Positions 1 through 22,537 are shown, numbered from the stretch's first letter. The stretch: 32,000 nt of DNA from an uncultured Methanosarcinales archaeon (GCA_964577685.1 CAZNZT010000006.1:39320-71319), one strand, 5' to 3'. Program-made: numbers and translations. The notes: generated by a model from the sequence alone, not told the origin.

Positions 1-302
1 TTCCTGTTATCGAAATCTATTCTACTGCCACATTCTACTCAATGCTAAGCACAAAAAAGAAAGGAAAGAAAATAGTAAGGATATGTAATTCCCTCCCATG
101 TTATCTAAATGGTTCACTCAACATACTAGAAGAAGCAAAAAGACTGCTAGGCATAGACATTAATCAAACAACAAAAGATGGAAAATTTACCCTAGAAGTT
201 ACTTCATGTATAGGTTGTTGTGATAAAGGTCCTGCTATTATGATTAATGACAAACTAATCACAAACATAACAAAAGAGAAATTAAGAAAACTACTAAAAT
301 GA
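1..302 (+). CDS. NuoE/HoxE/HydC-like [2Fe-2S] thioredoxin-fold subunit, 5'-truncated by the window edge
   Basis: The frame is open from nt 3 (PVIEIYSTATFYSMLSTKKKGKKIVRICNSLPCYLNGS...TSCIGCCDKGPAIMIND). It carries the ATFYSM motif and the C-x4-C ... C-x3-C cysteine pattern of NuoE-type subunits. Its stop overlaps the next start (ATGA at 299-302). Confidence 0.8.
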   Translation, partial: PVIEIYSTATFYSMLSTKKKGKKIVRICNSLPCYLNGSLNILEEAKRLLGIDINQTTKDGKFTLEVTSCIGCCDKGPAIMINDKLITNITKEKLRKLLK

Positions 303-1405
303 AGACACTCCAAAAAACATACCTAAAAGCTTGGAAGAAAGCAAACAAACTAGGACCAGAAAAAACTATTAAGATTCTAAAGAAAAAAGGCCTCACAGGT
401 AGAGGGGGAGCAGATTTCCCAACATGGTTAAAATGGGAACTAACAAGAAAAACAAAGAGCAAAGAAAGGATAATAATCTGCAATGCAGATGAGGGTGAAC
501 CAGGAACATTCAAAGACAAGCTAATACTAGAAAAGAACCCTGAAAATGTGATTGAGGGGATACTAATAGCAGCCTACTGCATTGATTCAAAAGAAGCCTA
601 TATCTACTTAAGAGGGGAATATGCATATCTAAAGGACAAACTAAGAAAAACAATAAAAAAAATTCTCAAAGCTACAAAATCAGACCTTTACCTAGAAATA
701 ATAGAAGGGGCAGGAGCGTACATCTGTGGTGATGAAACAGCTATTATCTCGTCTATTGAAAATAAAAGAGGATATCCAAACTTTAAGCCACCTTACCCTT
801 CACAAAAAGGGCTTTATAACAAACCAACCCTAATAAACAATGTTGAAACATTAGCAAATGTTCCATTAGCACTCATCAACAAAGATTGGAATAACCACTC
901 AAGATTGTTCTCTATCTCTGGTGATGTGCTAAGACCAGGAGTCTATGAATTAAAGATTGGTACTAGGCTAGAGAAAATAGCTAAAAAGGTACAAGCAAAG
1001 AATCCTAAAGCGGTTTATTTTGGTGCCTCAGGGGGGTGTATTTATTATGAGCCAAACCTGATAATAGACCAGAAAAACCTATGTAAAAAAAATGTTATGT
1101 TAGGTACATGTTCTCTGATTTTTGTTAACAAAAAAAGAAACATCCTTGATATAGCAATAAACATAGCGCAATTCTTTACACACGAGTCCTGTGGCAAATG
1201 TACACCATGTAGAGAAGGGAACATCCATATCCTAAATTTATTAGAAAGAATAAAATCAAAAAAAGCAACTGAAAAAGATTTACAACTACTAGAAAAACTA
1301 TCTATTATTATTAAGGATACCTCGTTATGTGGCTTGGGACAAACCTGTACCAACCATATCCTAACAGCCATAAGGCACTTTAAAGAGGATTTCCAAGTAA
1401 AATAA
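299..1405 (+). CDS. NuoF/HydB-like FMN- and NAD(P)H-binding [4Fe-4S] flavoprotein subunit, minimal 368-aa form
   Basis: GRGGADFPT matches the GRGGAGFP FMN/NADH-site motif. ESCGKCTPCREG plus SLCGLGQ matches the N3-type 4Fe-4S motif. The start overlaps the upstream stop, and there are no N- or C-terminal ferredoxin extensions. Confidence 0.85.
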   Translation: MKTLQKTYLKAWKKANKLGPEKTIKILKKKGLTGRGGADFPTWLKWELTRKTKSKERIIICNADEGEPGTFKDKLILEKNPENVIEGILIAAYCIDSKEAYIYLRGEYAYLKDKLRKTIKKILKATKSDLYLEIIEGAGAYICGDETAIISSIENKRGYPNFKPPYPSQKGLYNKPTLINNVETLANVPLALINKDWNNHSRLFSISGDVLRPGVYELKIGTRLEKIAKKVQAKNPKAVYFGASGGCIYYEPNLIIDQKNLCKKNVMLGTCSLIFVNKKRNILDIAINIAQFFTHESCGKCTPCREGNIHILNLLERIKSKKATEKDLQLLEKLSIIIKDTSLCGLGQTCTNHILTAIRHFKEDFQVK

Positions 1406-1407
1406 AA

Positions 1408-3114
1408 ATGATAAAACTAAGGATAAACGGAAAAGAAGTTGAAGCGGAAGAAGGAGAGTACATTATTGATGTTGCTAAAAGGAATGGAATAGACATACCC
1501 CACTTCTGCTATAATGAAAGACTAGAAAGAATAGGTGCTTGTAGACTATGTGTTGTAGAGGTGAAGGGTATGCCTAGGCTACAAGCATCATGTTCTACCC
1601 AAGTTAAAGAGCATATGGAAATCTACACGCATACCCCAAGGGTCCTTGAAGCAAGAAGGGTAAATATGCAACTTTTGCTAGCTAACCATGATTTATATTG
1701 TACATTGTGTAAGGAAAACTTATTGTGTAAACTACAAAGGTATGCCTCTGAGTTAATGATTGAAGACACTCCATTTGAAATCCTACACAGGTATGATGAA
1801 ATAGATAATTCAAGTGTCTCGATACGAAGGGATAACAATAAATGTATATTATGTGAGCAGTGTGTTAGAATCTGTAATGATGTCCAGACCGTCTATGCTA
1901 TTGGGTTAGTAAATAGAGGAATCAATACAAGAGTAAAACCAAGTTTTGAACACACAATGAAAGAAAGTGCTTGTATTAACTGTGGACAATGTGTAGTTGC
2001 ATGCCCAACCGGTGCTCTAACTGAGAAAAGTGACATACAAGGGGTTATTGATGCTTTAAATTCTAATAAGTATCTCATTGCCCAAACCGCTCCCTCAATA
2101 AGAGCAACATTAGGGGAGTGTTTTGGCATACCAGCAGGTACACCTGTAACAGGAAAAATGGTTTCTGCATTAAAACAAATTGGCTTTGATAAGGTATTTG
2201 ACACGAATTTTGGAGCAGACATATGCATAATAGAAGAAGCAACTGAATTTATAAAAAGGATTAAGCAAAAAGGCACATTACCTATGATTACAACATGCTG
2301 CCCAGCATGGATAAAATTTGGTGAACAATTTTACTATGAAGAATTAAACAAAAATATGTCAACATGCAGAAGTCCCCAGGCTATATTGGCTTCTTTAGTA
2401 AAAACATACTATGCAAAAAAAATCAATAAGAATCCAGAAGACATTATTCTTGTAGATATCATGCCTTGCACAGCAAAAAAATATGAAATTTTAAGACCAG
2501 AATTCAAAGGTGAAGCAGATTTTGTATTAACGACTGTTGAACTTGCCAAGCTATTGAAACAGCTCAATGTTGATTTTGTGAATCTGCCCCACACTGAATT
2601 TGATGATCCCCTTGGGTTTAGTACAGGGGCAGGAGACATTTTTGGGCATACAGGAGGGGTTATGGAAGCTGCTCTGAGAACAGTAGCTGATTGGCTTAGT
2701 GGAGAAGACCTTAAAGAGATTGACTATAAAGAGATAAGGGGGATGGAGGAAGTTAAAGAAGCAGAAATTGATATCGCTGGAATGAGCATAAGAATATGTG
2801 TAGTGCATACAATGGGAGCAGCACGAAAATTGCTAGAACAAATAAAAGCTGGAAAAAGCCCATATCACTTTATAGAAATAATGGCATGCTATGGTGGCTG
2901 TATTGGAGGAGGTGGCCAACCACCACCACACAACAAAGAAAGGCTGGCAAAGAGAATAAAGGCCTTAATAAATGTTGATGAAAGAAAAAAAATAAGAAAA
3001 TCCCATAAGAATCCAGCTGCCCTAAAGATATATGCAGAATATCTCGGAGAACCGGGTTCAAAAAAGGCACACAGGTTATTACACACAACCTATTCTAAAA
3101 AGAGTTATGTCTAA
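1408..3114 (+). CDS. hydA: [FeFe]-hydrogenase catalytic subunit, M3-type (N-terminal 2Fe-2S, His-ligated 4Fe-4S, 2x 4Fe-4S, then the H-domain)
   Basis: All three H-cluster motifs are present: TTCCPAW (L1), MPCTAKKYE (L2) and EIMACYGGCIGGGGQP (L3). The N-terminus has CYNERLERIGACRLCVV, HDLYCTLCKENLLC, CILCEQCVRIC and CINCGQCVVACP. The start lies 3 nt after the upstream stop. Confidence 0.92.
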   Translation: MIKLRINGKEVEAEEGEYIIDVAKRNGIDIPHFCYNERLERIGACRLCVVEVKGMPRLQASCSTQVKEHMEIYTHTPRVLEARRVNMQLLLANHDLYCTLCKENLLCKLQRYASELMIEDTPFEILHRYDEIDNSSVSIRRDNNKCILCEQCVRICNDVQTVYAIGLVNRGINTRVKPSFEHTMKESACINCGQCVVACPTGALTEKSDIQGVIDALNSNKYLIAQTAPSIRATLGECFGIPAGTPVTGKMVSALKQIGFDKVFDTNFGADICIIEEATEFIKRIKQKGTLPMITTCCPAWIKFGEQFYYEELNKNMSTCRSPQAILASLVKTYYAKKINKNPEDIILVDIMPCTAKKYEILRPEFKGEADFVLTTVELAKLLKQLNVDFVNLPHTEFDDPLGFSTGAGDIFGHTGGVMEAALRTVADWLSGEDLKEIDYKEIRGMEEVKEAEIDIAGMSIRICVVHTMGAARKLLEQIKAGKSPYHFIEIMACYGGCIGGGGQPPPHNKERLAKRIKALINVDERKKIRKSHKNPAALKIYAEYLGEPGSKKAHRLLHTTYSKKSYV

Positions 3115-3191: not shown

Positions 3192-4199
3192 ATGATAAGA
3201 GTAGCAATTAATGGTTTTGGAAGAATAGGAAGGCTTGTGCTAAAGGCAGGAATAAACGATAAAAAGATAAAATTTGTAGCAATAAATGACTTAACAGACC
3301 CTGGCACATTAGCACACTTGCTCAGATGGGACTCAGTCCATGGAAAATTTCCGGGCACGATAAAAGCAAAAAAGGATTCAATCATAGTAAATGGACAGGA
3401 GATAAAAATAACAGCAGAAAAAAATCCTGAAAAATTGCCTTGGAAAAAATTAAAAGTAGATATTGTAATAGAATGCACAGGAAAATTCAGAAAATATGAT
3501 GATTGCGTACTACATCTAAAAGCAGGAGCTAGGAAAGTACTGCTTTCAGCTCCACCAAAAGGCGATAAGCCAATAAAACAGATTGTTATGGGTGTAAACC
3601 ATGAGACATATGAAGGAGAAGACATTGTATCAAATGCTTCCTGCACTACAAACTGCTTTGCACCGATGGCAAAAATAATAAATGATAATTACGGGATAAT
3701 TGATGGGGTGATGACAACAATCCATAGCTATACCAACGACCAAAGAATTCTTGATGGGCCACACAAAGACCTCAGAAGAGCAAGGGCAGCAGCCCTAAAC
3801 ATTGTCCCAACCTCTACAGGAGCAGCAAAAGCAATAGGAGAGGTAATACCTGAACTAAAGGGAAAAGTTATAGGGTCAGCAATAAGGGTACCAACACCAG
3901 ATGGTTCACTATGTCATTTTGTAGCAGAGCTAAAAGGAAAAATAGACAAGGACATAACAGAAGAAGCAAATGCTTTATTCAAAAAAATGGCTAGAACAAA
4001 ATACAAGGGAATTATTGAATATTCAAATGAAGCATTAGTATCAACAGATGTTATTGGTAATCCGCACTCATGCCTCTTTGACTCCCAACTAACAACCTCT
4101 GTAGGAGATAACCTTATTGTGGTTGGTTGGTATGACAATGAGTGGGGCTACTCCAACAGAATGATAGATGTAATAAGGCTAATGGCAAAGTATATTTAA
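3192..4199 (+). CDS. gap: Glyceraldehyde-3-phosphate dehydrogenase, class I (bacterial/eukaryotic type)
   Basis: The N-terminus is INGFGRIGR, the active site is SNASCTTNC, and WYDNEWGYS lies near the C-terminus. Confidence 0.93.
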   Translation: MIRVAINGFGRIGRLVLKAGINDKKIKFVAINDLTDPGTLAHLLRWDSVHGKFPGTIKAKKDSIIVNGQEIKITAEKNPEKLPWKKLKVDIVIECTGKFRKYDDCVLHLKAGARKVLLSAPPKGDKPIKQIVMGVNHETYEGEDIVSNASCTTNCFAPMAKIINDNYGIIDGVMTTIHSYTNDQRILDGPHKDLRRARAAALNIVPTSTGAAKAIGEVIPELKGKVIGSAIRVPTPDGSLCHFVAELKGKIDKDITEEANALFKKMARTKYKGIIEYSNEALVSTDVIGNPHSCLFDSQLTTSVGDNLIVVGWYDNEWGYSNRMIDVIRLMAKYI

Positions 4200-4226: not shown

Positions 4227-6215
4227 ATGATTGAGTACATAGTACTAATAATAAGCCTATTATCAATCCTGTTTGCTATCCAAAAGGCTAGAAGTATAAT
4301 CAAAAAAAGTCCTGGAACAAAAAAAATGGAGGAGTTTTCTGAAACCATACATAAAGGGGCAATGACTTTCCTAGAAAAAAAATACTTCATACTAAGTATA
4401 TTTGTAATTATTGTTTCTGTAATCTTATATTATTTTATAAACAAAATTATAATGATAGCATTCATAATAGGAGCATTCTTTTCAGCATTAGCAGGAAACA
4501 TAGGCATGAGGATAGCAACAAAAGCAAATACAAGAACAACAGAAGCCTCAAAGAAGTCAATAAACGATGGTTTAATGGTTGCATTTTCATCAGGAGCAGT
4601 AATGGGACTAAGTGTTGTCGGTCTAGGCCTTCTTGGAATAACCCTCCTTTACATGGTGTTCAAAGACCCAGAAGTGATTTATGGTTTTGGTTTTGGTGCT
4701 TCATCAATAGCACTATTTGCAAGAGTAGGTGGTGGAATCTACACAAAAGCAGCAGATGTTGGTGCAGACCTTGTAGGAAAAGTAGAAGAAGGGATACCGG
4801 AAGATGATCCAAGAAACCCCGCGGTAATAGCAGACAATGTAGGGGATAATGTTGGTGATGTTGCAGGAATGGGTGCTGATTTATTTGAAAGCTATGTTGA
4901 TTCAATAATATCAACAATGGTTATAGGAACAACAATGATAGCTGCTACAAGAATAGTAGATGGATATATATTATTGCCGTTGATGATAGCAGCCGTAGGG
5001 ATTATCTCATCAATCATAGGAACAAAATTTGTTAAAGCAAAGAAAGGAAACACCCAACATGCACTAGACAAAGGCATATGGTCTGCTTCAGTCATAGCAG
5101 CAATCTTATCATTTATAGTCATAAAGCTTGTAATTCCAGGTCAACTTGGATTTAATATCTTCTACTCAATGTTATCAGGCCTATTAATAGGAATAATAAT
5201 CGGCATCTCAACAGAATACTATACATCAAATACAAAAAATCCAACAAGAAAAGTTGCAGAAGCATCAAAAACTGGGGCAGGAACAAATCTGATAGAAGGG
5301 TTGTCAGTGGGAATGATATCAACAACAATACCAATAATAGCAATATGCAGTTCTGTATTAATATCATACTATCTATCAGGCCTTTATGGGATTGCAATAT
5401 CAGCTGTAGGCATGCTTTCAACATTGGGAATAACACTTGCTACTGACTGTTATGGTCCAGTAGCAGATAATGCAGCTGGAATCGCAGAGATGGCAAAACT
5501 CGGAAAGAAGACAAGAAAGAGGTGTGAAAGCCTAGATGCTGTAGGAAACACAACAGCAGCTATAGGTAAAGGCTTTGCAATAGGTTCAGCAGGACTAACA
5601 GCCCTAGCACTCTTTGTTAGCTTTACACAGGTCGCATCAGAGCTAACAGGAAAAACAATTATCATTGATATAACAACACCAAAGGTAATTGTTGGGCTAC
5701 TCATCGGAGGCCTTCTACCATTTATCTTTTCTGCATTCACCCTAAGAGCTGTTGCAAGAGCAGCAGAAAAGGTAGTAATAGAAGTAAGAAGGCAATTCAA
5801 AAGCAGAAAAGGCCTAATAGAAGGAAAAGAAAAACCAGATTACAAAAGATGCATCTCAATAGTAACAGGAGCAGCGATAAAAAAGATGCTCTTACCCAGT
5901 ATCATCACAATAGCTACCCCTATCCTAGTGGGCTTAATAATAGGAATAGAGGCTCTAGGAGGGCTAATAGCTGGAGTAACAATAACAGGGCTTATACTTG
6001 CAATATCCATGGCAAATTCTGGTGCAACATGGGATAATGCAAAGAAATATATTGAAGAAGGAAAATTCGGAGGAAAGGGAAGCCCAGCACACAAGGCATC
6101 TGTCATTGGTGACACCCTTGGGGACCCAATAAAAGATACCACAGGTCCCTCACTAAATATTCTAATAAAGCTGGTAAGCATAGTTGCGCTTGTTTTCTTA
6201 CCATTGTTCCTATAA
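4227..6215 (+). CDS. hppA: Membrane-integral ion-translocating pyrophosphatase, K+-dependent-type signature
   Basis: A 662-aa polytopic protein with the motifs GGGIYTKAADVGADLVGK, DNVGDNVGD and DAVGNTTAAIGKGFAIGSA. The Ala in GNTTAA is the position associated with K+-dependent enzymes. An AGGTGA Shine-Dalgarno-like site precedes the ATG. Confidence 0.92.
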   Translation: MIEYIVLIISLLSILFAIQKARSIIKKSPGTKKMEEFSETIHKGAMTFLEKKYFILSIFVIIVSVILYYFINKIIMIAFIIGAFFSALAGNIGMRIATKANTRTTEASKKSINDGLMVAFSSGAVMGLSVVGLGLLGITLLYMVFKDPEVIYGFGFGASSIALFARVGGGIYTKAADVGADLVGKVEEGIPEDDPRNPAVIADNVGDNVGDVAGMGADLFESYVDSIISTMVIGTTMIAATRIVDGYILLPLMIAAVGIISSIIGTKFVKAKKGNTQHALDKGIWSASVIAAILSFIVIKLVIPGQLGFNIFYSMLSGLLIGIIIGISTEYYTSNTKNPTRKVAEASKTGAGTNLIEGLSVGMISTTIPIIAICSSVLISYYLSGLYGIAISAVGMLSTLGITLATDCYGPVADNAAGIAEMAKLGKKTRKRCESLDAVGNTTAAIGKGFAIGSAGLTALALFVSFTQVASELTGKTIIIDITTPKVIVGLLIGGLLPFIFSAFTLRAVARAAEKVVIEVRRQFKSRKGLIEGKEKPDYKRCISIVTGAAIKKMLLPSIITIATPILVGLIIGIEALGGLIAGVTITGLILAISMANSGATWDNAKKYIEEGKFGGKGSPAHKASVIGDTLGDPIKDTTGPSLNILIKLVSIVALVFLPLFL

Positions 6216-6257: not shown

Positions 6258-7415
6258 ATGGTCAAGGTATCTGTACTCAAATGCAGCTCATATGATACAA
6301 ATGAGCTCTATAAAACAATAAAGCAGTCACTAAAAAATATTAATTTTACCATTCCAAAAAACAAGAAGATTCTTATAAAACCAAATGTACTCGGACAGAA
6401 AAAACCAAACACATCAATAAATACACATCCCGCAGTAATAGATGCCCTATGTCAGATTCTAAAAGAGAAAAACAATGAAATCTGGATAGGAGACTCAAGC
6501 GGCATAGCATCATATGGGGGAACAAAAAAAGCATTTAGAATTTCAGGGATTGAAGAAGTAGCAAAAAAACACAATTGCAGGTTAATATCCTTTGAGGGTT
6601 CACAAAGAAAAAAAATCATAGACAATAATGCAAAGATAATAAAGAAGTTTGTTCTTGCAAAAGAGCCCTTTCTAGCAGACCTAATAATTAATGTTCCAAA
6701 ACTGAAAACCCATGTTCTAATGAGATTCACTGGAGCAGTGAAAAACATGTTTGGTTGTGTCCCAGGGGGTGGAAAATCAAGAAAGCATGCTATAGCTCCA
6801 AACGAAGACAAATTTGCAAATCTTCTACTGGATATATACCAGAACATAAAACCACAGCTAAATATAATGGATGCAATAATGGGTCTTGAAGGTAATGGGC
6901 CTGGCTCAGGAGGGAATCCCAAGAAGGTAGGACTGATAATAACATCAAAAGATGCGGTTGCCTTAGATATAGTTGCCTCAAAGATTATAGGTTATGACCC
7001 ATTAGAAATAAAAACAACAAAATATGCCATAGAAAGAGGAATCTTCTCCGAAAAAGTAGAAGTAATAGGTGAAAAAAATTACAGAGTAAGATTCAAAAAA
7101 CCAATAAGAAAAAGTAAATTTGCAAGAGCTATGCCAAAAACAATTATAAAACTCATGTTCACGATTACTTCAATAAAGCCATATATAAAAAAGCAAAGAT
7201 GTAAGAAATGTAAGATATGCTATAACGTCTGTCCAACTAAAGCGATAACCCTAGACCCCTATCCAAAATTCAATAGAAAAAAATGTATATTATGTTATTG
7301 CTGTCATGAAAATTGTCCTTACAAAGCAATAGAATTAAAAAAGAACCCAATAATAGAAATATATGAAAGAATTAAGAACGCCATGTGGAGAATAAACAAT
7401 AAAAAGGAAGATTAG
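6258..7415 (+). CDS. DUF362-domain protein with a C-terminal 2x[4Fe-4S] ferredoxin domain
   Basis: IKPN...HP..., LKTH and GLEGNGPG motifs are remembered from DUF362. The C-terminus has CKKCKICYNVCP and CILCYCCHENCP ferredoxin motifs. Confidence 0.7.
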   Translation: MVKVSVLKCSSYDTNELYKTIKQSLKNINFTIPKNKKILIKPNVLGQKKPNTSINTHPAVIDALCQILKEKNNEIWIGDSSGIASYGGTKKAFRISGIEEVAKKHNCRLISFEGSQRKKIIDNNAKIIKKFVLAKEPFLADLIINVPKLKTHVLMRFTGAVKNMFGCVPGGGKSRKHAIAPNEDKFANLLLDIYQNIKPQLNIMDAIMGLEGNGPGSGGNPKKVGLIITSKDAVALDIVASKIIGYDPLEIKTTKYAIERGIFSEKVEVIGEKNYRVRFKKPIRKSKFARAMPKTIIKLMFTITSIKPYIKKQRCKKCKICYNVCPTKAITLDPYPKFNRKKCILCYCCHENCPYKAIELKKNPIIEIYERIKNAMWRINNKKED

Positions 7416-7540: not shown

Positions 7541-8746
7541 ATGAAAAAAATAGATGAAATAGAACTTAAAGGAAAAGAGGTTTTGATAAGACTGGACCTA
7601 AATGTTTCATCACGGAATCCAGAAGAAATAGCAGAAGAAGACAGACTAAAAGCAGCCCTGCCTACAATAACATATGTAAGAGAAAAAGGCGGAAAAGCCA
7701 TATTAATGTCACACTTAGGAAGACCAAAGGGGAAGGTAGTCCAAAATGATAGTTTAAGATGTGTGGCTAAAGCATTAGAAACAAAACTTGGCACTTCTGT
7801 CAGATTTATTGATGACTGTATAGGGGAAATGCCAAGAAGTGCTATATCAGAAATGCAACCAGGCGATATAGTTTTATTAGAAAATCTAAGATTCTATCCT
7901 GGAGAAGAAAATAATGATCCAGAATTTGTAAAGGAACTTGCTAAGCTAGGGGAGGTCTATATAAATGATGCGTTTGGAACAGCCCACAGAGCACATGCAT
8001 CAACATATGGTCTCCCATTACTATTCCACCAAGAAGGAAAACCAGTAGCTGCTGGCTTTCTTATGCAAAGGGAGATAGAACTATGGTCTAGAGTTCTACA
8101 AAGCAGAGGACCAAAATACCTATGCCTAGGTGGAAAAAAATTAAAAGAAAAAATAAAAGCTCTTGAAAAACTAAGCAGGGAGTTTGATAAAGTCTATATT
8201 GGAGGTCCTGTCTATAATGTAGTGAGAGCTGCACAAAACAGAAGTGTTGGAAAATCCCTAATAAAAGAGAAAAATGATGACACAGATTATGTAGCAAAAA
8301 CAAGAGAGTTTCTAGGGGCACTTAGTAACTTGGTTTTGCCGGATGAGCTTGTAACAGCAAGACCAGAAAGAGAAGTAAAAGATGGAAAAGAAACAACAAT
8401 CTACACAGAACCAAGAACAATAAAAGAAGATGATGAAATGCCAGAGGGCTATATGATTGTTGATTGCATCTATGGAGAAGAAAAACTTGAAGAACTTACC
8501 AAAGCAAATGTGGTTGTTGGCTTTGGTCCATTCGGGATATTTGAAGACGAAAGGTTCGCAAAAGGAACAAGAAAAATAGGGCAGGCTCTCAACAATGTAA
8601 ATACGGTAGTATTAGGTGGGGGAGATTCAGCAAAGGCATATGCAGGAACAAAGGCTGAACTCTCAACAGGCGGAGGAGCTTCAATAACATATCTAAGCAA
8701 GAAGAGACTAGACGCCATAGATGCCCTTGAAGGAATCAAGCGATAG
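7541..8746 (+). CDS. pgk: Phosphoglycerate kinase
   Basis: Motifs are RLDLNV, SHLGRPKG, NLRF.PGEE, NDAFGTAHRAHAS and GGGDS. An AAGGGGTGG SD-like site lies about 5-14 nt upstream. Confidence 0.9.
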   Translation: MKKIDEIELKGKEVLIRLDLNVSSRNPEEIAEEDRLKAALPTITYVREKGGKAILMSHLGRPKGKVVQNDSLRCVAKALETKLGTSVRFIDDCIGEMPRSAISEMQPGDIVLLENLRFYPGEENNDPEFVKELAKLGEVYINDAFGTAHRAHASTYGLPLLFHQEGKPVAAGFLMQREIELWSRVLQSRGPKYLCLGGKKLKEKIKALEKLSREFDKVYIGGPVYNVVRAAQNRSVGKSLIKEKNDDTDYVAKTREFLGALSNLVLPDELVTARPEREVKDGKETTIYTEPRTIKEDDEMPEGYMIVDCIYGEEKLEELTKANVVVGFGPFGIFEDERFAKGTRKIGQALNNVNTVVLGGGDSAKAYAGTKAELSTGGGASITYLSKKRLDAIDALEGIKR

Positions 8747-12688: not shown

Positions 12689-13042
12689 ATGAAAAGAAAA
12701 CTGATAAAAAAGATAAAAGCAAAAAGAGAAGCGAAAAAACTTATCCCAAAGCTATTTGAAAAAGCCAGATTAGCATATAAAAAGGGTAACAAAAAACTTT
12801 ACAAAACATATTCCAAAAAAATAAAATATCTATACATGAAGTACAAAATAAAATTACCAAAAATCCTCAAAAGACAAATCTGCAAACACTGTGATTCTGT
12901 ATTTCTTTATGGCAAGAACTGTAGAGTAAGAACAAGAGAGCATAAACTAATAATCTACTGCCTTGAATGTAAAAGGTTTACCAGAATTCCACTAAAAGCA
13001 AAAAAAAACAATAAAAACCAGAGTAATATTACTACTATCTAA
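12689..13042 (+). CDS. rnp4: RNase P protein component 4 (Rpr2/RPP21 family, archaeal/eukaryal)
   Basis: An N-terminal basic helical region (AKKLIPKLFEKARLAYKKGNKKLYKTYSKKIKYLYMKYKIKLPK) is followed by a zinc ribbon (CKHCDSVFLYGKNCRVRTREHKLIIYCLECKRFTRIP). Confidence 0.85.
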   Translation: MKRKLIKKIKAKREAKKLIPKLFEKARLAYKKGNKKLYKTYSKKIKYLYMKYKIKLPKILKRQICKHCDSVFLYGKNCRVRTREHKLIIYCLECKRFTRIPLKAKKNNKNQSNITTI

Positions 13043-13377: not shown

Positions 13378-14376
13378 ATGAAAAACCAAAGAATAAGCAG
13401 GAGAAACTTCATAGGTAAAGTGCTAGGAACTATAACAGCTATGGCCCTTGGCCAAACTGTGTTAGCAGATAACACAACTTATGTAGTAAGAACCGGAGAC
13501 ACCTTATATGGCATTGCAAGAAGGCTAAAAAAAGAAAACCCAGAAAGATATGGGCAAATAACATGGGAGGACATTGCAGAAGAAAATAACTTAAAACCAC
13601 CTTACATAATAAAACCTGGACAAAGAATAAGGATTCCTCTCAGAGAAGAAGAGCAGCTAAGCCAACTTGAATCAATAATAGAGATAGAAGGCTTCACAAT
13701 AGAAAACAACAGGGATACAGGGCTGTATGTTAATGGCAGAAGATATAATTACAAGAACAGAAAAGCAAGGGACCTAGCAAAACATATAATCCTAGAAGGA
13801 TTAAGATTATACCATAAATACAAGGACTATCCATATGTATGGGGTGGAGATTCATTCTTACCGATAGAACAACAAAAAAAACACCCTATCTTAAGAAGAT
13901 ATTTTACAACATACCAAGCAGGAAGCAGGCTTAGAGGAAAACTAAAAACAATCCCTGGTGTTGATTGCTCTGGATTAATAAATCTCATATATGATACATG
14001 TGGGATTAACAGACTAGAAGATGGAAGGAGGACTGCATCAATCTACAAAAACAGTCCACACTACACAACAGTCATAAAAGGAAAACCATCAAAAGCGGAA
14101 GTTCTTGAAAAAGCGAAACCTGGAGACCTATTGATACTCGCAAATGGAAGACATGTAGCCTTATACTTAGGGGATGGAAAGATACTAGAATCAAGTGGAT
14201 ACAAGAAACTAGAGAGAAACGAAAAAACTAGGAGATTACTAGAAGAATGGAGAAGATTCGTAAGAAAAGCAGGAGCAAACATTCCAGATGATTACAGGGG
14301 AGGGATGCAAATCAGCGATGTTAACAAATACCTAGGAAGAGGGGTTTATATAAGAAGGCACAAATCACTCCAATAA
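13378..14376 (+). CDS. Tat-signal LysM-domain plus NlpC/P60 cysteine peptidase (cell-wall hydrolase type)
   Basis: Twin-arginine signal SRRNFIGKVLGTITAMALG. LysM domain YVVRTGDTLYGIARRL...IKPGQRIRIP. NlpC/P60 core YVWGGDS...GVDCSGLINLIY with the downstream His in GRHVALYLGDG. Confidence 0.85.
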   Translation: MKNQRISRRNFIGKVLGTITAMALGQTVLADNTTYVVRTGDTLYGIARRLKKENPERYGQITWEDIAEENNLKPPYIIKPGQRIRIPLREEEQLSQLESIIEIEGFTIENNRDTGLYVNGRRYNYKNRKARDLAKHIILEGLRLYHKYKDYPYVWGGDSFLPIEQQKKHPILRRYFTTYQAGSRLRGKLKTIPGVDCSGLINLIYDTCGINRLEDGRRTASIYKNSPHYTTVIKGKPSKAEVLEKAKPGDLLILANGRHVALYLGDGKILESSGYKKLERNEKTRRLLEEWRRFVRKAGANIPDDYRGGMQISDVNKYLGRGVYIRRHKSLQ

Positions 14377-14408
14377 GATTTATAAAGAAAAACTATTTCT
14401 AAAAAATC

Positions 14409-14663
14409 ATGCACAATATATATAACCTAGAGCTAGCCAAAGCGATAAGGGAGATAAAAAAACAAAAGGCAAAACTAGTCTGCATACAATTACCAGATGG
14501 ATTAAAGCCAAAAGCAAAAGAGATTGTTGATAGGATAGAAAATGAAACAAACGCAAAATGTATAATCTGGGCTGGTTCTTGTTTTGGTCCTTGTGATATT
14601 CCTAATTTAAATAAAAAAAACATTGATTTGCTAATCCAGTGGGGACACTCAAAAAATCCATAA
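14409..14663 (+). pseudogene. dph2: Truncated diphthamide synthase Dph2 (N-terminal about 84 aa only)
   Basis: YNLELAKAIREIKKQKAKLVCIQLPDGLKPKAKEIVDRIENETNAKCIIWAGSCFGPCDI...LLIQWGHS resembles the N-terminus of archaeal Dph2 (about 330-340 aa) as I remember it. The ORF stops after GHSKNP, and the next gene starts 12 nt later. Confidence 0.6.
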
Positions 14664-14674
14664 ATCTATAAAAG

Positions 14675-15070
14675 ATGAAAACATATTTTGTTGTAACAGG
14701 AATAGTAAAGCATAAAAATAAATTCTTGATACTAAAAAAATCACCGAAAGATTATAATTATCCGAACAAGTGGAGCTTCTGTTCTGGTTTTGTCAAAGAG
14801 TTTGAAAGTGCAGAAGATTCTGTACTAAGAGAGATAAAAGAAGAAACTGGACTTGAAGCCAAAATAAAAAAAACCGGAAAAATAACAAAAGTCATTGACA
14901 AAAGAAAGAAAATAAGATGGGTTATAGCAGTATATCTTTGCTCAGTAAAAAGAACAGATGTAAAGCTGTGCCATGAGAATACAGACTTTAGATGGATAAA
15001 GAAAAATGAATTCAAAAGGTATGATTTTGTACCAGGTATAACAGGAGATTTCAAAAGATTAGGATTGTAA
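14675..15070 (+). CDS. NUDIX hydrolase
   Basis: Complete Nudix box GFVKEFESAEDSVLREIKEETGL (G-x5-E-x7-REUxEExGU). Confidence 0.88.
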   Translation: MKTYFVVTGIVKHKNKFLILKKSPKDYNYPNKWSFCSGFVKEFESAEDSVLREIKEETGLEAKIKKTGKITKVIDKRKKIRWVIAVYLCSVKRTDVKLCHENTDFRWIKKNEFKRYDFVPGITGDFKRLGL

Positions 15071-15117
15071 AAAAACATAAAAAAATATATAAACAACAAA
15101 ACAAGTTTGTTTGAAAA

Positions 15118-15549
15118 ATGGAAATAATAATCGGCTCTGACCATGCTGGATTTAATCTGAAAGAGAAAATAAAGGCTTTTCTGAACGAAGAAGGCATTAA
15201 AACAAATGACCTAGGAACATTCTCAGAAGAACCAATAGACTATCCATTAATAGCGAAAAAAGTCGCAACAGCAGTAGTAAAGAACAACTCATTAGGAATT
15301 CTGATATGTGGTTCTGGTATAGGAATGTCTATAGCAGCTAACAAAATAAAAGGTGTTAGAGCTGCATTATGTTACGACAAATACACAGCAAAGGTTGCAA
15401 AAGCTCACAATAACGCAAATATTATCTGTCTAGGAGCTAGAACAGAATCAACAAAAAGATTCAAAGAGATAATAAAAACATGGTTAGAAACGAAACCACC
15501 AGAAGAAGAACGCCATAAAAGAAGAATCCAAGAATTGAACGAGCTATGA
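15118..15549 (+). CDS. rpiB: Ribose-5-phosphate isomerase B (RpiB/LacAB family)
   Basis: Motifs are IGSDHAGFNLKE and ICGSGIGMSIAANK..VRAA, at the typical 143-aa length. Confidence 0.9.
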   Translation: MEIIIGSDHAGFNLKEKIKAFLNEEGIKTNDLGTFSEEPIDYPLIAKKVATAVVKNNSLGILICGSGIGMSIAANKIKGVRAALCYDKYTAKVAKAHNNANIICLGARTESTKRFKEIIKTWLETKPPEEERHKRRIQELNEL

Positions 15550-16019
15550 TGAACTTCTTAAATTACAGCATAATATCCATAATCTCCTACTCTGGACTAT
15601 TTCTCGGTTTCCTTTTAGCGATAATAGCCAAAGAAGAGATAAAGCAAGGAGAAAGATATTTCATATTATTAAAAAAAACAATCCTAGCCCTTATATTTAT
15701 CTTCTTATTGATATTAAAAACTAAAGACCATCTAACAACCACCTTAATCCTTGCTTTTGTTATTTTATATATGATAAAAACAAAAAAAGAATTTAATGAA
15801 CTCCCATATATCTATATAATCCTAGGTCTTGTTTTATACACATCATCAAAAAACCTAGAACTTTTAATGATTGAATCATCACTAATATTTATATTAGGGT
15901 TCCCAGTAGGAACACTACTGACAAAAAAAGACAAAAAAAGAACACTAAAGGAGATTATAAAAAACATTGGACTTGTGATTAGTGCGATAATTCCATTTTT
16001 TTTCAAAACAATTTCTTAA
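15546..16019 (+). CDS. Hypothetical polytopic membrane protein (157 aa)
   Basis: It has four to five hydrophobic segments, and its start overlaps the rpiB stop (ATGA). Confidence 0.55.
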   Translation: MMNFLNYSIISIISYSGLFLGFLLAIIAKEEIKQGERYFILLKKTILALIFIFLLILKTKDHLTTTLILAFVILYMIKTKKEFNELPYIYIILGLVLYTSSKNLELLMIESSLIFILGFPVGTLLTKKDKKRTLKEIIKNIGLVISAIIPFFFKTIS

Positions 16020-17058
16020 CCTTGATTGGGCTAACCATAAGCATAGCCAAAAAAAGATAGATATAAGGGTAAGCAGAAAAAGGAACCTTAATAAGATATA
16101 TGAAAGGAACCACAAGACCATTGATAGTTATGGGCATACCAGCATAATCGCCAGTAAACTCCATCACATTATATCTTGCTAATCTCAAAACCCCAGCAAA
16201 TATAAACAAAGCAAACATAATAACAGCAAGCCTTGTTTGTATCAAGCTAAAACCAAATATTGCTGGAGCAACTCCAAAGCTGATGGTATCAGCTAAACTA
16301 TCAAGTTGTTTTCCAAAGTCTCCCTTTCGCCTTATTAATCTCGCTACCTTCCCATCTAAATAATCAAACAACACGGCAATCAATAACATAAAAATTGAGA
16401 GATAATATCTACTATTTATCGAAAAAATAATAGAAAACATTCCAGCCAAGATGTTAAAAAAAGTAAAAAAATCTGGCAATTTTATCAGTTTCAAGAATCT
16501 AATCTCCTCAAACTCACTCCTATACCTAGTAATTCTTACCCCTGACCTAAAAAGCGAAATAACAAAACTCAACCCCACAAGAAGCAAAGATATTGTAATC
16601 AAAACATAATCAAGCCTCTCGAGTAAGACAAAAAACAATGTTAAGAGCTGTACAAAAACAGAAATCCTATCAACAAAATTGGACCTGAAAACTATTTTTG
16701 GCTTTCTTATAAGTATTAACAAAGCACCAATTACTATCAACAAATCTTTAACCAAAAAAACACCTGTAACCCAGAAAGGAAAAAGCCCTTTAAGAGACAA
16801 AGAGATAGCAGTTAAATTAACAAGCAATTTATCAGCAAAGGGATCAAAGATAGAGCGAAACTGACTAACTATTTTGTATTTTTTCGCAATAAATCCATCC
16901 AAGAAGGAAACAATCGCAGTTAACACAAAAAGGTAAAGAGCCAAATTATTTCTTGAACTTAATATTAACAAAAAGACAATAAAGCTAAGGAAGATTCTAA
17001 AAAATATCAAACCAATACCATTACTAACCCTCCTAACAAAATGTCTCGGCTTAATCAT
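16003..17058 (-). CDS. Tandem two-domain CDP-alcohol phosphatidyltransferase: N-terminal PgsA-like domain fused to a C-terminal PssA-like (archaetidylserine synthase-type) domain
   Basis: Two copies of the D-G-x2-A-R-x8-G-x3-D-x3-D motif. The first is DGFIAKKYKIVSQFRSIFDPFAD (variant with R->K and G->R). The second is DGKVARLIRRKGDFGKQLDSLAD (canonical, followed by SFGVAPA). The gene lies directly downstream of psd. Confidence 0.8.
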   Translation of the reverse strand: MIKPRHFVRRVSNGIGLIFFRIFLSFIVFLLILSSRNNLALYLFVLTAIVSFLDGFIAKKYKIVSQFRSIFDPFADKLLVNLTAISLSLKGLFPFWVTGVFLVKDLLIVIGALLILIRKPKIVFRSNFVDRISVFVQLLTLFFVLLERLDYVLITISLLLVGLSFVISLFRSGVRITRYRSEFEEIRFLKLIKLPDFFTFFNILAGMFSIIFSINSRYYLSIFMLLIAVLFDYLDGKVARLIRRKGDFGKQLDSLADTISFGVAPAIFGFSLIQTRLAVIMFALFIFAGVLRLARYNVMEFTGDYAGMPITINGLVVPFIYLIKVPFSAYPYIYLFLAMLMVSPIKVKKLF

Positions 17059-17069
17059 GGTAACTAATA

Positions 17070-17690
17070 TTAATATTCTGCCAATATAGTCTCACCTGCT
17101 CTAACAACATCTCCCTTCTTAACTAATATTTTCACCCTAGAGGGGAGTATCAAACTTACTTGGCTTCCTAATATAATCTTTCCTATCCTCTCACCTTTAT
17201 TAAGCTTCTGTTTCTCTTTAACAAAACACACTATTTTTCTTGCAAAAAAACCTGCTATCTGTATTACCTTTATTTTACCAACCTCTGTTTTCATTAATAT
17301 CTCGTTACACTCATTAAGAAGACTTTTTTTTCTGCTTGCAATAAAGAATTTTCCTTCATTATACTTAACATTTAACACTACACCACTCATTGGAGCCCTG
17401 TTGACATGAACATCAAATGGCCCCATAAAAATAGAAATGATATATCCGTCCTTTGCAACATCTCTAAAAAATACATTAATCCTGCCAAAAAGCCCTTTTC
17501 TTATAGTTCCCTCCTTTCTCTTAATTCGCTTTAACATAATAACCTTCCCATCAGCAGGGGAAACAATATTTCTTCCTTTAGAGATAATCCTCTCTGGATC
17601 CCTTAGAAAAATAAATCTATAAAAAAATAGGAATAAAAAAACAAAAACCAAAAATACGGAAAATAAAACCTCTATAAAAGACATTTTCAT
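17070..17690 (-). CDS. psd: Phosphatidyl/archaetidylserine decarboxylase proenzyme (short archaeal/bacterial Asd type)
   Basis: N-terminal TM, SPADGKV, DVHVNRAP, QIAGFFARKI, and a GS self-cleavage-type site in ILGSQVSL. Confidence 0.82.
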   Translation of the reverse strand: MKMSFIEVLFSVFLVFVFLFLFFYRFIFLRDPERIISKGRNIVSPADGKVIMLKRIKRKEGTIRKGLFGRINVFFRDVAKDGYIISIFMGPFDVHVNRAPMSGVVLNVKYNEGKFFIASRKKSLLNECNEILMKTEVGKIKVIQIAGFFARKIVCFVKEKQKLNKGERIGKIILGSQVSLILPSRVKILVKKGDVVRAGETILAEY

Positions 17691-17729
17691 CTAAGCCTGC
17701 TTCCTAGTTTTTGATTTTAACATTTATTA

Positions 17730-18266
17730 TTACCATTTAGTATCCCTTATCCCAAGATAGTAAGCCAAATGATTAATAAAAATATGTCCAAAAAAACTCA
17801 AAATAACAATCACCAAGACCATTTCAAATGTCAATCTAAAAACAAAAGAAACAAACAGAAGAGCCCCAAAAACAAAATCAAGCTGGTCAAAAGGCCTGAA
17901 GGGTTCTCCTGGTTTTATCCTGATTCTTCTTTTAAAAAAGCTTTCTATAAGGTCTCCTATTACAGCCCCAAATCCCATCAAAAAACCAAAAACAAACCAA
18001 TTTGAATAATCAAAAAAGCTTAGTTTCAAAAAAAATTTAAAGTTAAGTAATACCCTCTGCAGATATGCAATAACAACAGAGAAGATAATGCCAAAAATAA
18101 AACCCCTCCATGTCTTATTTCTACCAAATATCCCCTTGCCAAAAAGCCTCCTGTTCCTGTCAATCGGCACAGCCAGAAAATTAAACCATTTTTTTACTAT
18201 AACTGGAGCCATATTAGCAAAATATGCAGGCATCATAAAATAAAAACACTTGGCTATGAAAAGCAT
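17730..18266 (-). CDS. carS: CDP-archaeol synthase (CarS, DUF46 family)
   Basis: MPAYFANMAPV, GRNKTWRGF, GDLIESFFKRR and FDQLDF closely match the remembered A. fulgidus CarS pattern (GKTWRGF, GDL..SF.KRR, DQL). Confidence 0.85.
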   Translation of the reverse strand: MLFIAKCFYFMMPAYFANMAPVIVKKWFNFLAVPIDRNRRLFGKGIFGRNKTWRGFIFGIIFSVVIAYLQRVLLNFKFFLKLSFFDYSNWFVFGFLMGFGAVIGDLIESFFKRRIRIKPGEPFRPFDQLDFVFGALLFVSFVFRLTFEMVLVIVILSFFGHIFINHLAYYLGIRDTKW

Positions 18267-18271
18267 CTAAA

Positions 18272-18919
18272 TCACCAAAAAGGTATCCTCGTTGCTTTTA
18301 TGAAGCTAAGAAGCTTCCCAACAGACCCAAAAAAATGATTGCTCTTTATAGTAGTTTTTCTTCTTTTTATAGCGTCCCTCAATTCACCATCAAAGACAGT
18401 ATAGGCCCTACCAAGTTCAAAAGAAAAATGTGCATCCGAACCAGCTACCTTAGCCATTTTATTCTCTTCAGCAAATCTTAGTGCCTTTTTATTAGTAAAA
18501 TAAAAAAGCCTTCCATTATTACATTCAACAGCATCTAACAAACCTAGGTCCACACCATTCTTCTTAAACCTAAGCCTTGGAAAGATATCAAAAGGATGGG
18601 CTATAATCGCTATTCCGCCTTGTCTGTGTATCTTCTCAACAGCAGAAAAGAAATCCCATTCCTTTACATCTTCAGTTAAATAAAGCCCAAGAAGATGTCC
18701 TCTATTGGTATACACCTCGCTACCAACAATTACCTCAAAGTCCTTATCTTTATTGAGCTTAGAAACTTTTATAGCTCCTTTTATAGTGTTATGATCAGTT
18801 ATAGCAATCCCATCAAGTCCAACTTTCTTCTTTGCTATCTTTAACAAAACCTCTGGCTTAAGACTAGCACAAGGAGAATAGTTGGTATGAACATGCAGGT
18901 CATATTTCATAATAACCAC
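18272..18919 (-). CDS. PHP-domain metal-dependent phosphoesterase
   Basis: YDLHVHTNYSPCAS, the conserved DG.A.TDHN, IAHP and GSDAH His/Asp motifs of the PHP fold. Confidence 0.8.
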   Translation of the reverse strand: MVIMKYDLHVHTNYSPCASLKPEVLLKIAKKKVGLDGIAITDHNTIKGAIKVSKLNKDKDFEVIVGSEVYTNRGHLLGLYLTEDVKEWDFFSAVEKIHRQGGIAIIAHPFDIFPRLRFKKNGVDLGLLDAVECNNGRLFYFTNKKALRFAEENKMAKVAGSDAHFSFELGRAYTVFDGELRDAIKRRKTTIKSNHFFGSVGKLLSFIKATRIPFW

Positions 18920-18922
18920 TAC

Positions 18923-19243
18923 TTACCCAAAGAGCTTCTTCATCATTTCGTCCAGTAACCGCTTACCTTCTGACAACAGCCTTTCCCCTTTCTTTGTTAT
19001 ATAGTAATACTTCCTTCTAGGCCCACCCTTATTAGAAGAATCCATTTTAGACCTAACATATCTTTCTAACTCAAGTTTGTATAGAACAATATAAGATGTT
19101 ATTGTCGCAGAATTAAAGCCAAAATTCTTTTGTATCTCCCTCTTAAGTTCATACGCATATCTAGGTTTCATTTTTAATAACTTCAAGATGTACAACCATA
19201 ACACTTCCTTTGTTATTTTATTCCTTAATCTTTCAATAGGCAT
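18923..19243 (-). CDS. PadR-family winged-helix transcriptional regulator
   Basis: YAYELKREIQ...SYIVLYKLELERYVRS...RRKYYYITKKGERLL is the typical PadR pattern. It is the first gene of the minus-strand lipid operon. Confidence 0.8.
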   Translation of the reverse strand: MPIERLRNKITKEVLWLYILKLLKMKPRYAYELKREIQKNFGFNSATITSYIVLYKLELERYVRSKMDSSNKGGPRRKYYYITKKGERLLSEGKRLLDEMMKKLFG

Positions 19244-19262
19244 AACTACACTAAAAAAACAG

Positions 19263-19276
19263 AATATTTAAATATT
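19263..19276. promoter_or_regulatory. Perfect 14-bp AT palindrome AATATTTAAATATT in the padR/SDR divergent intergenic region (bidirectional TATA-like element and/or operator)
   Basis: Read directly. It is self-complementary and lies about 20 nt upstream of padR and about 35-45 nt upstream of the SDR start. Confidence 0.35.
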
Positions 19277-19310
19277 TATCTATTACTACTATTTTATCAT
19301 CATAAAATAG

Positions 19311-20066
19311 TTGGTACCTATGAACAAAGAACTAAAAGGAAAGGTAGCAATCATAACAGGAGCAAGTAGAGGCATAGGAAAAGCAATAGCAATAGAGCTA
19401 GCAAAAAAAGGAGCAGACCTTGCAATCTTAGCAAGGACGAAAGAAAAACTTGAAAAACTAAAGAACCTTATTAAAAGAAGATACAATGTAAATGTTATTG
19501 CGTTGGTTGCAGATGTATCAAATAGTAAAGCTATAGAAAAACAATTTAGACTAGTTAAGGAAAAGCTTGGAAGAATAGATATTCTTGTAAACAATGCAGG
19601 GGTTAATGTAAGAAAAAATATCCATAAAATAAAAGAAGAAGAATGGGACTATGAGATAAACACAAACTTAAAAGGCACATTCATATGCTCAAAGGTAGCA
19701 TCAAAATATATGAAAAAACAAAGAAGAGGATGGATTATTAACATAGCTTCATTCAAAGTAAAAGAACCAGCTACATCCGCAGGTTATACTGCCTCAAAAA
19801 CAGGGATAATAGGACTAACAAGATGCCTAGCAAGAGACCTTATTCCGTATGGCATATATGTAAATGCCATTTCCCCCGGACCAATAGAAACTGACATGGC
19901 AAAACAATGGTCAGAAGAAGACAGAGAAAGATACATAGACAAAACAGCAATAAAAAGACTTGGAAAACCAGAAGAAATAGCTTCAGTAGTTTCGTTTCTA
20001 GTAAGCAAAGGAGCAAGCTATATAGTTGGAGCAAACATAGATGTTAATGGAGGAATCCTGTGGTAA
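19311..20066 (+). CDS. Short-chain dehydrogenase/reductase (FabG-like 3-oxoacyl reductase family)
   Basis: TGASRGIGKAIA (TGxxxGxG), NNAG and YTASK (YxxxK). The true start may be the ATG at 19320 (MNKEL). Confidence 0.85.
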   Translation: MVPMNKELKGKVAIITGASRGIGKAIAIELAKKGADLAILARTKEKLEKLKNLIKRRYNVNVIALVADVSNSKAIEKQFRLVKEKLGRIDILVNNAGVNVRKNIHKIKEEEWDYEINTNLKGTFICSKVASKYMKKQRRGWIINIASFKVKEPATSAGYTASKTGIIGLTRCLARDLIPYGIYVNAISPGPIETDMAKQWSEEDRERYIDKTAIKRLGKPEEIASVVSFLVSKGASYIVGANIDVNGGILW

Positions 20067-20082
20067 AAACTCAGAATAAAAA

Positions 20083-21483: not shown

Positions 21484-21577
21484 GGATTGTTATTAAAACT
21501 ATATAAAAGTTTTTTTAAAAGCCCTAAACAAAACACGAAAGCTATTTAAACAAACAGGTATCCAAGTTAAAAGACAA

Positions 21578-22525: not shown

Positions 22526-22537
22526 ACTCAAAATAAA

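Follow-up and report, generated by a model that had tools for sequence, protein, structure and literature searches.

Introduction

Hyd1ABC of Syntrophomonas wolfei combines an M3-type [FeFe]-hydrogenase catalytic subunit (HydA, ca. 570 amino acids (aa)) with a short NuoF-like HydB, which carries flavin mononucleotide (FMN) and one [4Fe-4S] cluster, and with a NuoE-like HydC, and its predicted role is the reoxidation of NADH at low H2 pressure. [FeFe] hydrogenases with nuoE- and nuoF-like partners have been reported, together with Rnf, in Woesearchaeota (Huang 2021, PMC8421398), and trimeric [FeFe] hydrogenases were found in six DPANN phyla (Greening 2024, PMC11216029). These two studies and a 2024 Microbiome paper filed the enzymes as electron-bifurcating/confurcating group A3, and the word 'non-bifurcating' was not found in the top-ranked literature on DPANN or Woesearchaeota hydrogenases. 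In this study, we analysed the hydCBA operon at the beginning of a 32,000-nucleotide (nt) stretch of DNA, hereafter the window (G000:C6:39320-71319; GCA_964577685.1 CAZNZT010000006.1:39320-71319), which is recorded under the name of an uncultured Methanosarcinales archaeon. The assembly it comes from, G000, comprises 1.33 Mb in 50 contigs and is 96.9% complete. Judged from its sequence, the operon probably encodes a trimeric non-bifurcating NADH-dependent [FeFe] hydrogenase of the S. wolfei Hyd1ABC kind that arose as a module-swapped hybrid.

The likeness to S. wolfei Hyd1ABC covers all three subunits, the HydB residues (T/S-x-K, a Tyr at the FMN site and no GGPSG) and the predicted role, whereas the window host is archaeal, its HydB is even shorter (368 aa) and its HydA comes from a lineage otherwise paired with bifurcating-type partners. 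With the 'group A3' enzymes of Woesearchaeota and other DPANN archaea, the operon shares the taxon, the hydC-hydB-hydA order, a place in a monophyletic archaeal HydA clade and the frequent absence of maturases. Unlike the enzymes as treated in those papers, all of which are taken to be bifurcating or confurcating, it has a HydB of non-bifurcating type and appears to be a hybrid. A further precedent is the hydrogenosomal Hyd of the eukaryote Caecomyces churrovis, which works with a minimal NuoE/NuoF pair of separate origin and forms H2 from NADH without ferredoxin in vitro (mBio 2026, PMC13556243), a case of functional module mixing. In that system, NuoEF is of mitochondrial complex-I descent, the genes are not in an operon and the origin of HydA is unrelated. 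Since HydA and NuoEF of separate origin combine in vitro, it is plausible that a swapped module yields a functional enzyme. The existence of such operons and the lack of maturases are not new in Woesearchaeota, and the kind of enzyme and its presence in these archaea were already known; what is new here is the hybrid origin and the two-paralogue structure behind it.

The hydCBA operon

The operon consists of the following genes.

3-302, + strand: 3' two-thirds (99 codons) of hydC, the NuoE-like [2Fe-2S] subunit, an open reading frame (ORF) of 138 aa when complete, whose start lies 114 nt upstream of the window
299-1405, + strand: hydB, a minimal NuoF-like flavoprotein of 368 aa with an FMN/NADH site and one N3-type [4Fe-4S] cluster (ORF, Pfam)
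1408-3114, + strand: hydA, an M3-type [FeFe]-hydrogenase catalytic subunit of 568 aa with a C-terminal small-subunit-like domain (ORF, Pfam, NCBIfam)

The hydC stop and the hydB start share the sequence ATGA, the gap between hydB and hydA is 2 nt, and the three genes are translationally coupled. When hydC was completed from the upstream part of the contig, its product matched 2Fe-2S_thioredx (PF01257) over the full length. HydB contained Complex1_51K, a weak SLBB match and NADH_4Fe-4S, with no other Pfam domain. The domains of HydA were Fer2_4 (PF13510), NADH-G_4Fe-4S_3 (PF10588), two Fer4, Fe_hyd_lg_C (PF02906, 308 bits) and Fe_hyd_SSU, and its score against the NCBIfam model TIGR02512 was 496 (cut-off, 406). 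The Cys/His patterns for an N-terminal [2Fe-2S] cluster, a His-ligated [4Fe-4S] cluster and two [4Fe-4S] clusters were readable in the translation. The H-cluster motifs were TTCCPAW (L1), MPCTAKKYE (L2) and EIMACYGGCIGGGGQP (L3), the expected signatures being TSCCPxW-like, MPCxxKxxE and ExMxCxxGCxxGGGQP, respectively. All three motifs were identical in the seven members of the hybrid clade to which the window HydA belongs (see below), and their ligands were canonical. These features assign the protein to the group A, M3-type catalytic subunits. The original prediction, made from the sequence alone, had described a HydABC-like operon of coupled genes with all three H-cluster motifs and an M3-type Fe-S relay, and ORFs, Pfam domains and motifs agree with it; the degenerate ligands that it wished to see checked did not occur anywhere in the clade.

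The L3 motif (window 2929-2976) reads EIMACYGGC in A2-type HydAs (defined below) and hybrid HydAs and ACPGGC in nearly all others. The Tyr beside the H-cluster ligand Cys is therefore clade-specific, this position being Pro in nearly all other HydAs of the set.

Domain and residue signature of HydB

HydB aligned only to residues 175-552 of the 626-aa HydB of Thermotoga maritima (PDB 7P5H chain B; E 4e-86; Furlan 2022, PMC9499530) and ended three residues past the point aligned to residue 552. The two complexes share the HydB core, the F-cluster chain and H-cluster of HydA and a homologous HydC. Unlike the T. maritima (Tm) protein, the window HydB is without the N-terminal [2Fe-2S] domain (Tm 1-174) and the C-terminal B3/B4 domain (Tm 553-626): its start corresponds to about position 21 in the NuoF profile of 410 positions, 33 residues precede the GRGG loop and there is no CxxCxxCxxxC motif. 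Every characterised bifurcating enzyme has clusters in the C-terminal part of HydB, and no non-bifurcating enzyme does (Furlan 2022).

According to Losey (2020), a non-bifurcating HydB is without the extra Fe-S domains, has T or S at Tm232 and K, S or A at Tm234, carries a Tyr at the FMN site and has no GGPSG. The window HydB agreed with this description on all four counts, since T70 and K72 stand in place of Tm A232 and M234, GAGAY replaces GAGAF (Tm F312) and GASGG replaces GGPSG. The FMN-site residue was scored as GAGA[F/Y] (Tm F312), which separates the groups in an alignment of 76 HydBs; 'position 367' of Losey 2020 is, by our count, not Phe in chain 7p5h_B. The archaeal members of this alignment had the following features.

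33 short archaeal HydBs: [T/S]xK, Tyr at the FMN site, no GGPxG, no ferredoxin motifs (33/33)
25 long archaeal HydBs: [A/S]xM, Phe at the FMN site in 21/25, GGPxG, two ferredoxin motifs

A wider tree united the short archaeal HydBs with NuoF of complex I and with bacterial hydrogenase-linked short HydBs in one clade (support 96), with all long HydBs outside it. An alignment search led by one bacterial short HydB returned mostly complex-I NuoF, together with 13 bacterial hydrogenase-linked short HydBs, S. wolfei not being among them; a related-locus search with the window HydB alone as the query gave no match. A profile search of the G000 genome revealed no long HydB, and the only other Complex1_51K protein was RnfC. 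Because HydB has neither the N-terminal [2Fe-2S] domain nor the C-terminal bridge domain with its two [4Fe-4S] clusters, a ferredoxin branch, and with it bifurcation or confurcation, would not be expected. The simpler NAD(P)H-linked enzyme that had been proposed for the window thus fits the four published traits and the structural argument from the C-terminal clusters, and no full-length HydB that could pair with this HydA came to light elsewhere in the genome.

NuoF-like HydBs with the non-bifurcating signature, adjoining an M3 HydA, were also seen in uncultured bacteria (Bacillota, Caldisericota, Cloacimonadota, Elusimicrobiota and unclassified; loci L027, L158, L175, L176, L188, L199, L200, L211, L214, L217 and L225). 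Several of these bacterial ORFs measure 520-560 aa and may represent a fused NuoE or an over-extended ORF.

Two operon types and the hybrid hydB-hydA pair

Genes were paired by coordinates in a sample of 201 genomes of the order, 58 of which had HydA and HydB. The order holds two paralogous trimeric operon types, one with a short and one with a long HydB. Both stand in tandem in genome G119 (locus L011 is on the same contig), in the order C1-B1-A1-C2-B2-A2, followed by genes for glyceraldehyde-3-phosphate dehydrogenase (GAPDH), H+-pyrophosphatase, a DUF362 protein and phosphoglycerate kinase, the same downstream genes as in the window.

G119/L011 operon 1, short type: C1, 146 aa; B1, 366 aa (short); A1, 563 aa
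G119/L011 operon 2, long type: C2, 197 aa; B2, 577 aa (long, two ferredoxin motifs); A2, 567 aa
Window HydA: 51% identity to G119 A1, 75% to G119 A2
Window HydB: 54% identity to G119 B1, 35% to G119 B2
Window HydC: 55% identity to G119 C1, 42% to G119 C2

The pairings in the order were distributed as follows.

A1-type HydA with short HydB: ca. 28 genomes
A2-type HydA with long HydB: 10 genomes, with three additional loci
More distant HydAs with long HydB: ca. 11 genomes
Tandem arrangement of both types: G119 and G162, the operon order being reversed between these genomes
Hybrid, A2-type HydA (78-84% identity) with short HydB (65-71% identity): G000, G038, G132, G009 and G135

The hybrid gene order, hydC-hydB(short)-hydA(A2-type), was also present on two further metagenome contigs, which brings the total to seven independent assemblies.

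Maximum-likelihood (ML) trees were computed by quick search, with node support from the Shimodaira-Hasegawa-like approximate likelihood ratio test (SH-aLRT), and topologies were compared by approximately unbiased (AU) tests. The archaeal HydA clade that includes the window protein was monophyletic (support 98). In the HydA tree, the five hybrid members formed a clade (support 100) within a 20-row clade (support 100) in which each of the remaining 15 rows had a long partner. The 33 short HydBs made up a single clade of the HydB tree (support 100), and the five hybrids lay within a 25-row subclade of it (support 97). A constraint that united all short-partnered HydAs cost 305 log-likelihood units (AU p 1e-130), and one that united the five hybrid HydBs with the long HydBs of the A2 clade cost 359 units (AU p 2e-47). 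Identity profiles were A2-like for HydA and B1-like for HydB from end to end, so neither gene is an internal mosaic. The A1-like state occurred at 0/12 diagnostic HydA columns, and only six fixed substitutions separated the hybrid HydA from the consensus of its long-partnered relatives. Mosaicism or partial gene conversion within hydA or hydB and convergence of HydA towards A1 residues were considered as well and gave no signal. With HydA following A2 and HydB following B1 throughout, one breakpoint is placed at the hydB-hydA junction. By the trees, the window operon is an evolutionary hybrid, with hydA derived from a long-partnered lineage and hydB from a paralogous short-type operon. The core of hydC probably came from the short-type operon too, as the ML tree placed HydC in the short-type clade, at its base (support 96).

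Regarding the classification, the window enzyme belongs to bifurcating group A3 (T. maritima and A. woodii type) by the kinship of its HydA and falls outside it by its HydB, which has no B3/B4 domain; because the window HydA nests among long-partnered HydAs, classification from HydA alone misleads. The NCBIfam model NF040763 ('NADH-dependent [FeFe] hydrogenase, group A6') was rejected as functional evidence. The window HydA passed it with 794.9 bits (cut-off, 765), and the L011 HydA that follows a long, bifurcating-type HydB passed it as well (789 bits), so the name does not discriminate the partner type. For annotation, this means that the partner type cannot be predicted from HydA phylogeny or from the 'A6' model, and HydB itself must be looked at.

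The window locus corresponds to the G119 locus minus A1-C2-B2, with the same 185-aa gene upstream and the same four genes downstream, which suggests a deletion between tandem operons behind the hybrid.

The tandem loci are L011/L095 (G119:C7:18033-25734) and L096 (G162:C116:992-8247). The short operons of G119 and G162 belong to different subclades and their long operons are close relatives, which suggests that a short operon was inserted beside a long one independently in the two genomes. In one hybrid relative, a D-2-hydroxyacid dehydrogenase gene stands between hydC and hydB (L154:3780-4781), with a 4-nt overlap with both neighbours, so that the hydrogenase operon there includes a gene for an NAD-linked dehydrogenase.

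Proposed function and its consequences

In the proposed cytoplasmic complex, NADH would reduce the FMN of HydB, and electrons would pass through the single N3-type [4Fe-4S] cluster of HydB and the N-terminal Fe-S chain of HydA to the H-cluster, where protons would be reduced to H2. The [2Fe-2S] cluster of HydC, comparable to N1a of complex I, would not be part of this path, and there would be no ferredoxin branch. The genes that follow the operon are listed below.

3192-4199, + strand: type I GAPDH (Pfam Gp_dh_N and Gp_dh_C), 77 nt after hydA
4227-6215, + strand: H+-pyrophosphatase (Pfam)
6258-7415, + strand: DUF362 protein with two [4Fe-4S] clusters (Pfam)
7541-8746, + strand: phosphoglycerate kinase (Pfam)

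GAPDH, encoded beside hydA and in the same position after hydA in G119 (66% identity), is the likely source of NADH. HydA was the only hydrogenase in G000, with one Fe_hyd_lg_C match in the genome and no [NiFe] large subunit. The genome also encodes rnfCDGEA, two POR alpha subunits and the A and B subunits of an A-type ATP synthase. The Rnf genes were located by genome search as follows.

L010:5175-9279 (G000:C3), - strand: rnfCDGEA

It is proposed that two 2-oxoacid:ferredoxin oxidoreductases make reduced ferredoxin, that Rnf oxidises it to form NADH and pumps ions for the A-type ATP synthase, and that HydABC vents the NADH as H2. The distribution of RnfD among the HydA-bearing genomes of the order (counts given below) fits the view that Rnf makes the bifurcating module dispensable. 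Since the step from NADH to H2 would run only at low H2 pressure, an H2-consuming partner would be needed; for the Syntrophus aciditrophicus enzyme, 2-40 Pa was measured (Losey 2020). A sigma-70-family ORF of 617 aa adjoins rnfCDGEA (L010:2962-4815, - strand, G000:C3).

DPANN surveys count every trimeric [FeFe] hydrogenase as electron-confurcating, and many of these enzymes, including that of the window, may use NADH only, a reading that contradicts the published A3 labels. If so, their owners could form H2 only where its pressure is very low and would depend on H2 consumers, and models of their energy yield would have to send ferredoxin via Rnf. The hybrid would further mean that a HydA which evolved with a bifurcating partner was retained in the long term with a non-bifurcating diaphorase module. 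Such retention would agree with bifurcation being a property of HydB and HydC and not of the H-cluster, an idea for whose test the matched pairs, A2 with B2C2 and A2 with B1C1, offer concrete constructs.

Maturation

Neither the window nor the G000 assembly as a whole yielded a HydE, HydF or HydG above the cut-off, and tblastn with the proteins of relatives detected no match or remnant. A radical-SAM gene 2.4 kb upstream of the operon, weakly matching HydE, was rejected as a candidate because it encodes an ELP3-type protein. Among the other HydA-bearing genomes of the order, HydG was above the cut-off in 6/57, three of the four hybrid relatives being among them. Maturases were present in the hybrid relatives G135, G009 and G038 and on contig L156, where hydG-hydE-hydF directly follows the hybrid hydA. 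In G135, which belongs to the same family, hydF-hydE-hydG (L151, 7064-10813) immediately precedes a NUDIX-RpiB-...-CarS-PHP block with synteny to window 14675-18910. The corresponding site of the window is as follows.

14377-14674, no strand: spacer upstream of the NUDIX gene, the site of hydF-hydE-hydG in G135; the contig is continuous here, with no maturase genes

In G000, the genes that border the G135 hydFEG cluster on its other side lie in the interior of a 74.5-kb contig. Because the hybrid relatives carry maturases, in L156 right after hydA, the enzyme of this clade is normally matured by HydEFG; the absence is specific to G000 and may reflect a real loss or an unbinned contig. The statement of the original prediction that no HydE/F/G maturase is visible therefore holds for the window and even for the whole assembly, but does not extend to the clade. 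The terminal branches of the window HydA (0.09) and HydB (0.26) were no longer than those of the maturase-bearing sisters, so there is no sign of decay.

In the survey of Greening 2024 (PMC11216029), the full HydEFG set was present in only 5/130 archaeal genomes with [FeFe] hydrogenases, the enzyme of one archaeal genome without HydEFG was shown to be active, and an alternative maturation pathway was postulated. That hydGEF has truly been lost in G000 and that the H-cluster is still made active, by an unknown archaeal route or with a cofactor from a partner cell, is possible but seems rather doubtful to us. If true, sister genomes with and without maturases but with near-identical operons would form a comparative pair for finding the alternative maturation route.

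Weighing of the proposal and its alternatives

Several points weigh against a non-bifurcating hybrid enzyme. The criteria of Losey (2020) were derived from 17 bacterial proteins, the HydB trees were built without S. wolfei Hyd1B and S. aciditrophicus HydB, and the activity of this and the other archaeal trimeric enzymes is predicted from sequence and not from biochemistry. The F-clusters of HydA could accept ferredoxin directly, or the nearby DUF362/ferredoxin-like protein could be an unrecognised partner. RnfD was found in 5/5 hybrid genomes, 2/2 tandem genomes and 8/51 other HydA-bearing genomes, but these counts come from related genomes and are not independent observations. What canonical maturation requires, HydEFG, was missing from G000, so HydA may stay unmatured there, although its place in the family does not depend on these maturases. 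As for the origin of the operon, a long-type descent of the HydC core was not rejected (AU p 0.24), and in the hybrid relatives L154 and L156 HydC measures 197-200 aa and retains a long-type N-terminal extension of ca. 55 aa, 64-72% identical to that of the C2-type HydC of G119, G162 and their kin. Moreover, the window HydB was not sister to G119 B1 in the HydB tree, so the donor operon would have belonged to another sublineage. A single deletion between tandem operons was rejected as the whole account, since it leaves the L154/L156 extension and the non-sisterhood of HydB and G119 B1 unexplained. We propose instead that hydB, and probably the core of hydC, replaced their long-type counterparts in an operon-2 background through one recombination, conversion or deletion event between co-resident operons, and that the HydC extension was later lost in some lines while the hybrid was kept across several families. 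The window HydC is without the extension, and no remnant of it was found in the G000 genome.

The HydC extension has the pattern MPYLK.V.IKG..Y.YLFHTVR.G.K..KLS.YIGK... and is restricted to a subclade of the long-type operons plus the two hybrid relatives (L156:4309-4470; L154:3190-3390; L095:6893-7054, - strand; L096:8080-8247, - strand).

With regard to function, the operon might encode an ordinary electron-confurcating group A3 HydABC that oxidises NADH and reduced ferredoxin together, as Huang 2021, Greening 2024 and the 2024 Microbiome paper classify the Woesearchaeota trimers, a classification that weighs against our proposal and with which the grouping of the window HydA among HydAs of bifurcating-type partners would agree. 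We consider this improbable: the published label rests on gene order and not on HydB anatomy, the window HydB has neither the N-terminal [2Fe-2S] nor the C-terminal B3/B4 domains and shows non-bifurcating residues at every diagnostic site, and the genome has no long HydB. A different objection is that the hydrogenase of G000 is an unmatured or decaying relic in which, hydGEF having been lost, HydA receives no [2Fe] subcluster. The lack of any HydE/F/G gene or remnant in a 96.9%-complete assembly speaks for it, as do the site that holds hydFEG in G135, which is continuous and empty in G000, and the position of the other flank of that cluster inside the 74.5-kb contig. A relic is nevertheless unlikely in view of three intact hyd genes with every ligand kept, branches no longer than those of the maturase-bearing sisters, and the lack of HydEFG in most archaeal [FeFe]-hydrogenase genomes, one of them with an active enzyme (Greening 2024); in addition, a cluster of ca. 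3.7 kb could simply be missing from a 50-contig bin.

The hybrid itself could be questioned in two ways. Incongruence of the HydA and HydB trees could be an artefact of misassembly, binning, long branches or composition, given that the data are metagenome-assembled genomes (MAGs) and the trees came from a quick search, but the hybrid order recurs in seven independent assemblies from different samples, the key nodes have SH-aLRT values of 97-100, both AU tests gave p below 1e-40, the identity profiles are uniform along both genes and no long branches were flagged, which makes an artefact extremely unlikely. Alternatively, the swap may have run in reverse, the short-HydB pairing being ancestral for this HydA lineage and the long HydB having been substituted repeatedly in its relatives. 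The trees are unrooted within the archaeal clade and the operon order differs between G119 and G162, so operons do move. Yet the hybrid clade lies several nodes deep among 15 long-partnered HydAs, the hybrid HydB is nested in a short clade whose partners are A1-type HydAs, and two hybrid members keep the long-type HydC extension; as many independent replacements would be needed, we regard this direction as very unlikely. A swap of the short-type hydB into the long-type operon, yielding a non-bifurcating enzyme, is the reading that we prefer.

Host and genomic surroundings

The host is a Woesearchaeota (DPANN) archaeon, and the operon is native to it. The window contains two archaeal markers.

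12689-13042, + strand: RNase P subunit Rpr2/Rpp21 (PF04032)
17730-18266, - strand: CDP-archaeol synthase CarS (PF01864)

The GC content is even along the window, both flanks of the operon are syntenic with G119, a genome of the same order, and the named closest homologues of HydA and HydB belong to Woesearchaeota, Nanoarchaeota or Altiarchaeota throughout. A chimeric or bacterial contig, which had been raised as a concern, is thereby set aside. Of the archaeal markers named at the outset, Rpr2 and CarS were confirmed by Pfam, but bulge-helix-bulge (BHB) introns were not: ARAGORN detected no tRNA in the window, Rfam gave no family even at E 0.1 and no BHB introns were found. The label 'uncultured Methanosarcinales archaeon' stands on four MAG records with these operons (L011, L013, L016 and L017) and looks wrong.

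Other genes of the window were noted in passing. A protein with LysM and NlpC/P60 domains (13378-14376) has the architecture of a bacterial cell-wall peptidase and may act on bacterial murein. A 489-aa radical-SAM protein (25681-27150) had no closer Pfam family and is neither HydE nor HydG. A lipid head-group cluster (16003-23053) encodes three CDP-alcohol phosphatidyltransferases, a phosphatidylserine decarboxylase, CarS and an LPG_synthase_TM protein, with genes for a short-chain dehydrogenase and an alpha/beta hydrolase interspersed.

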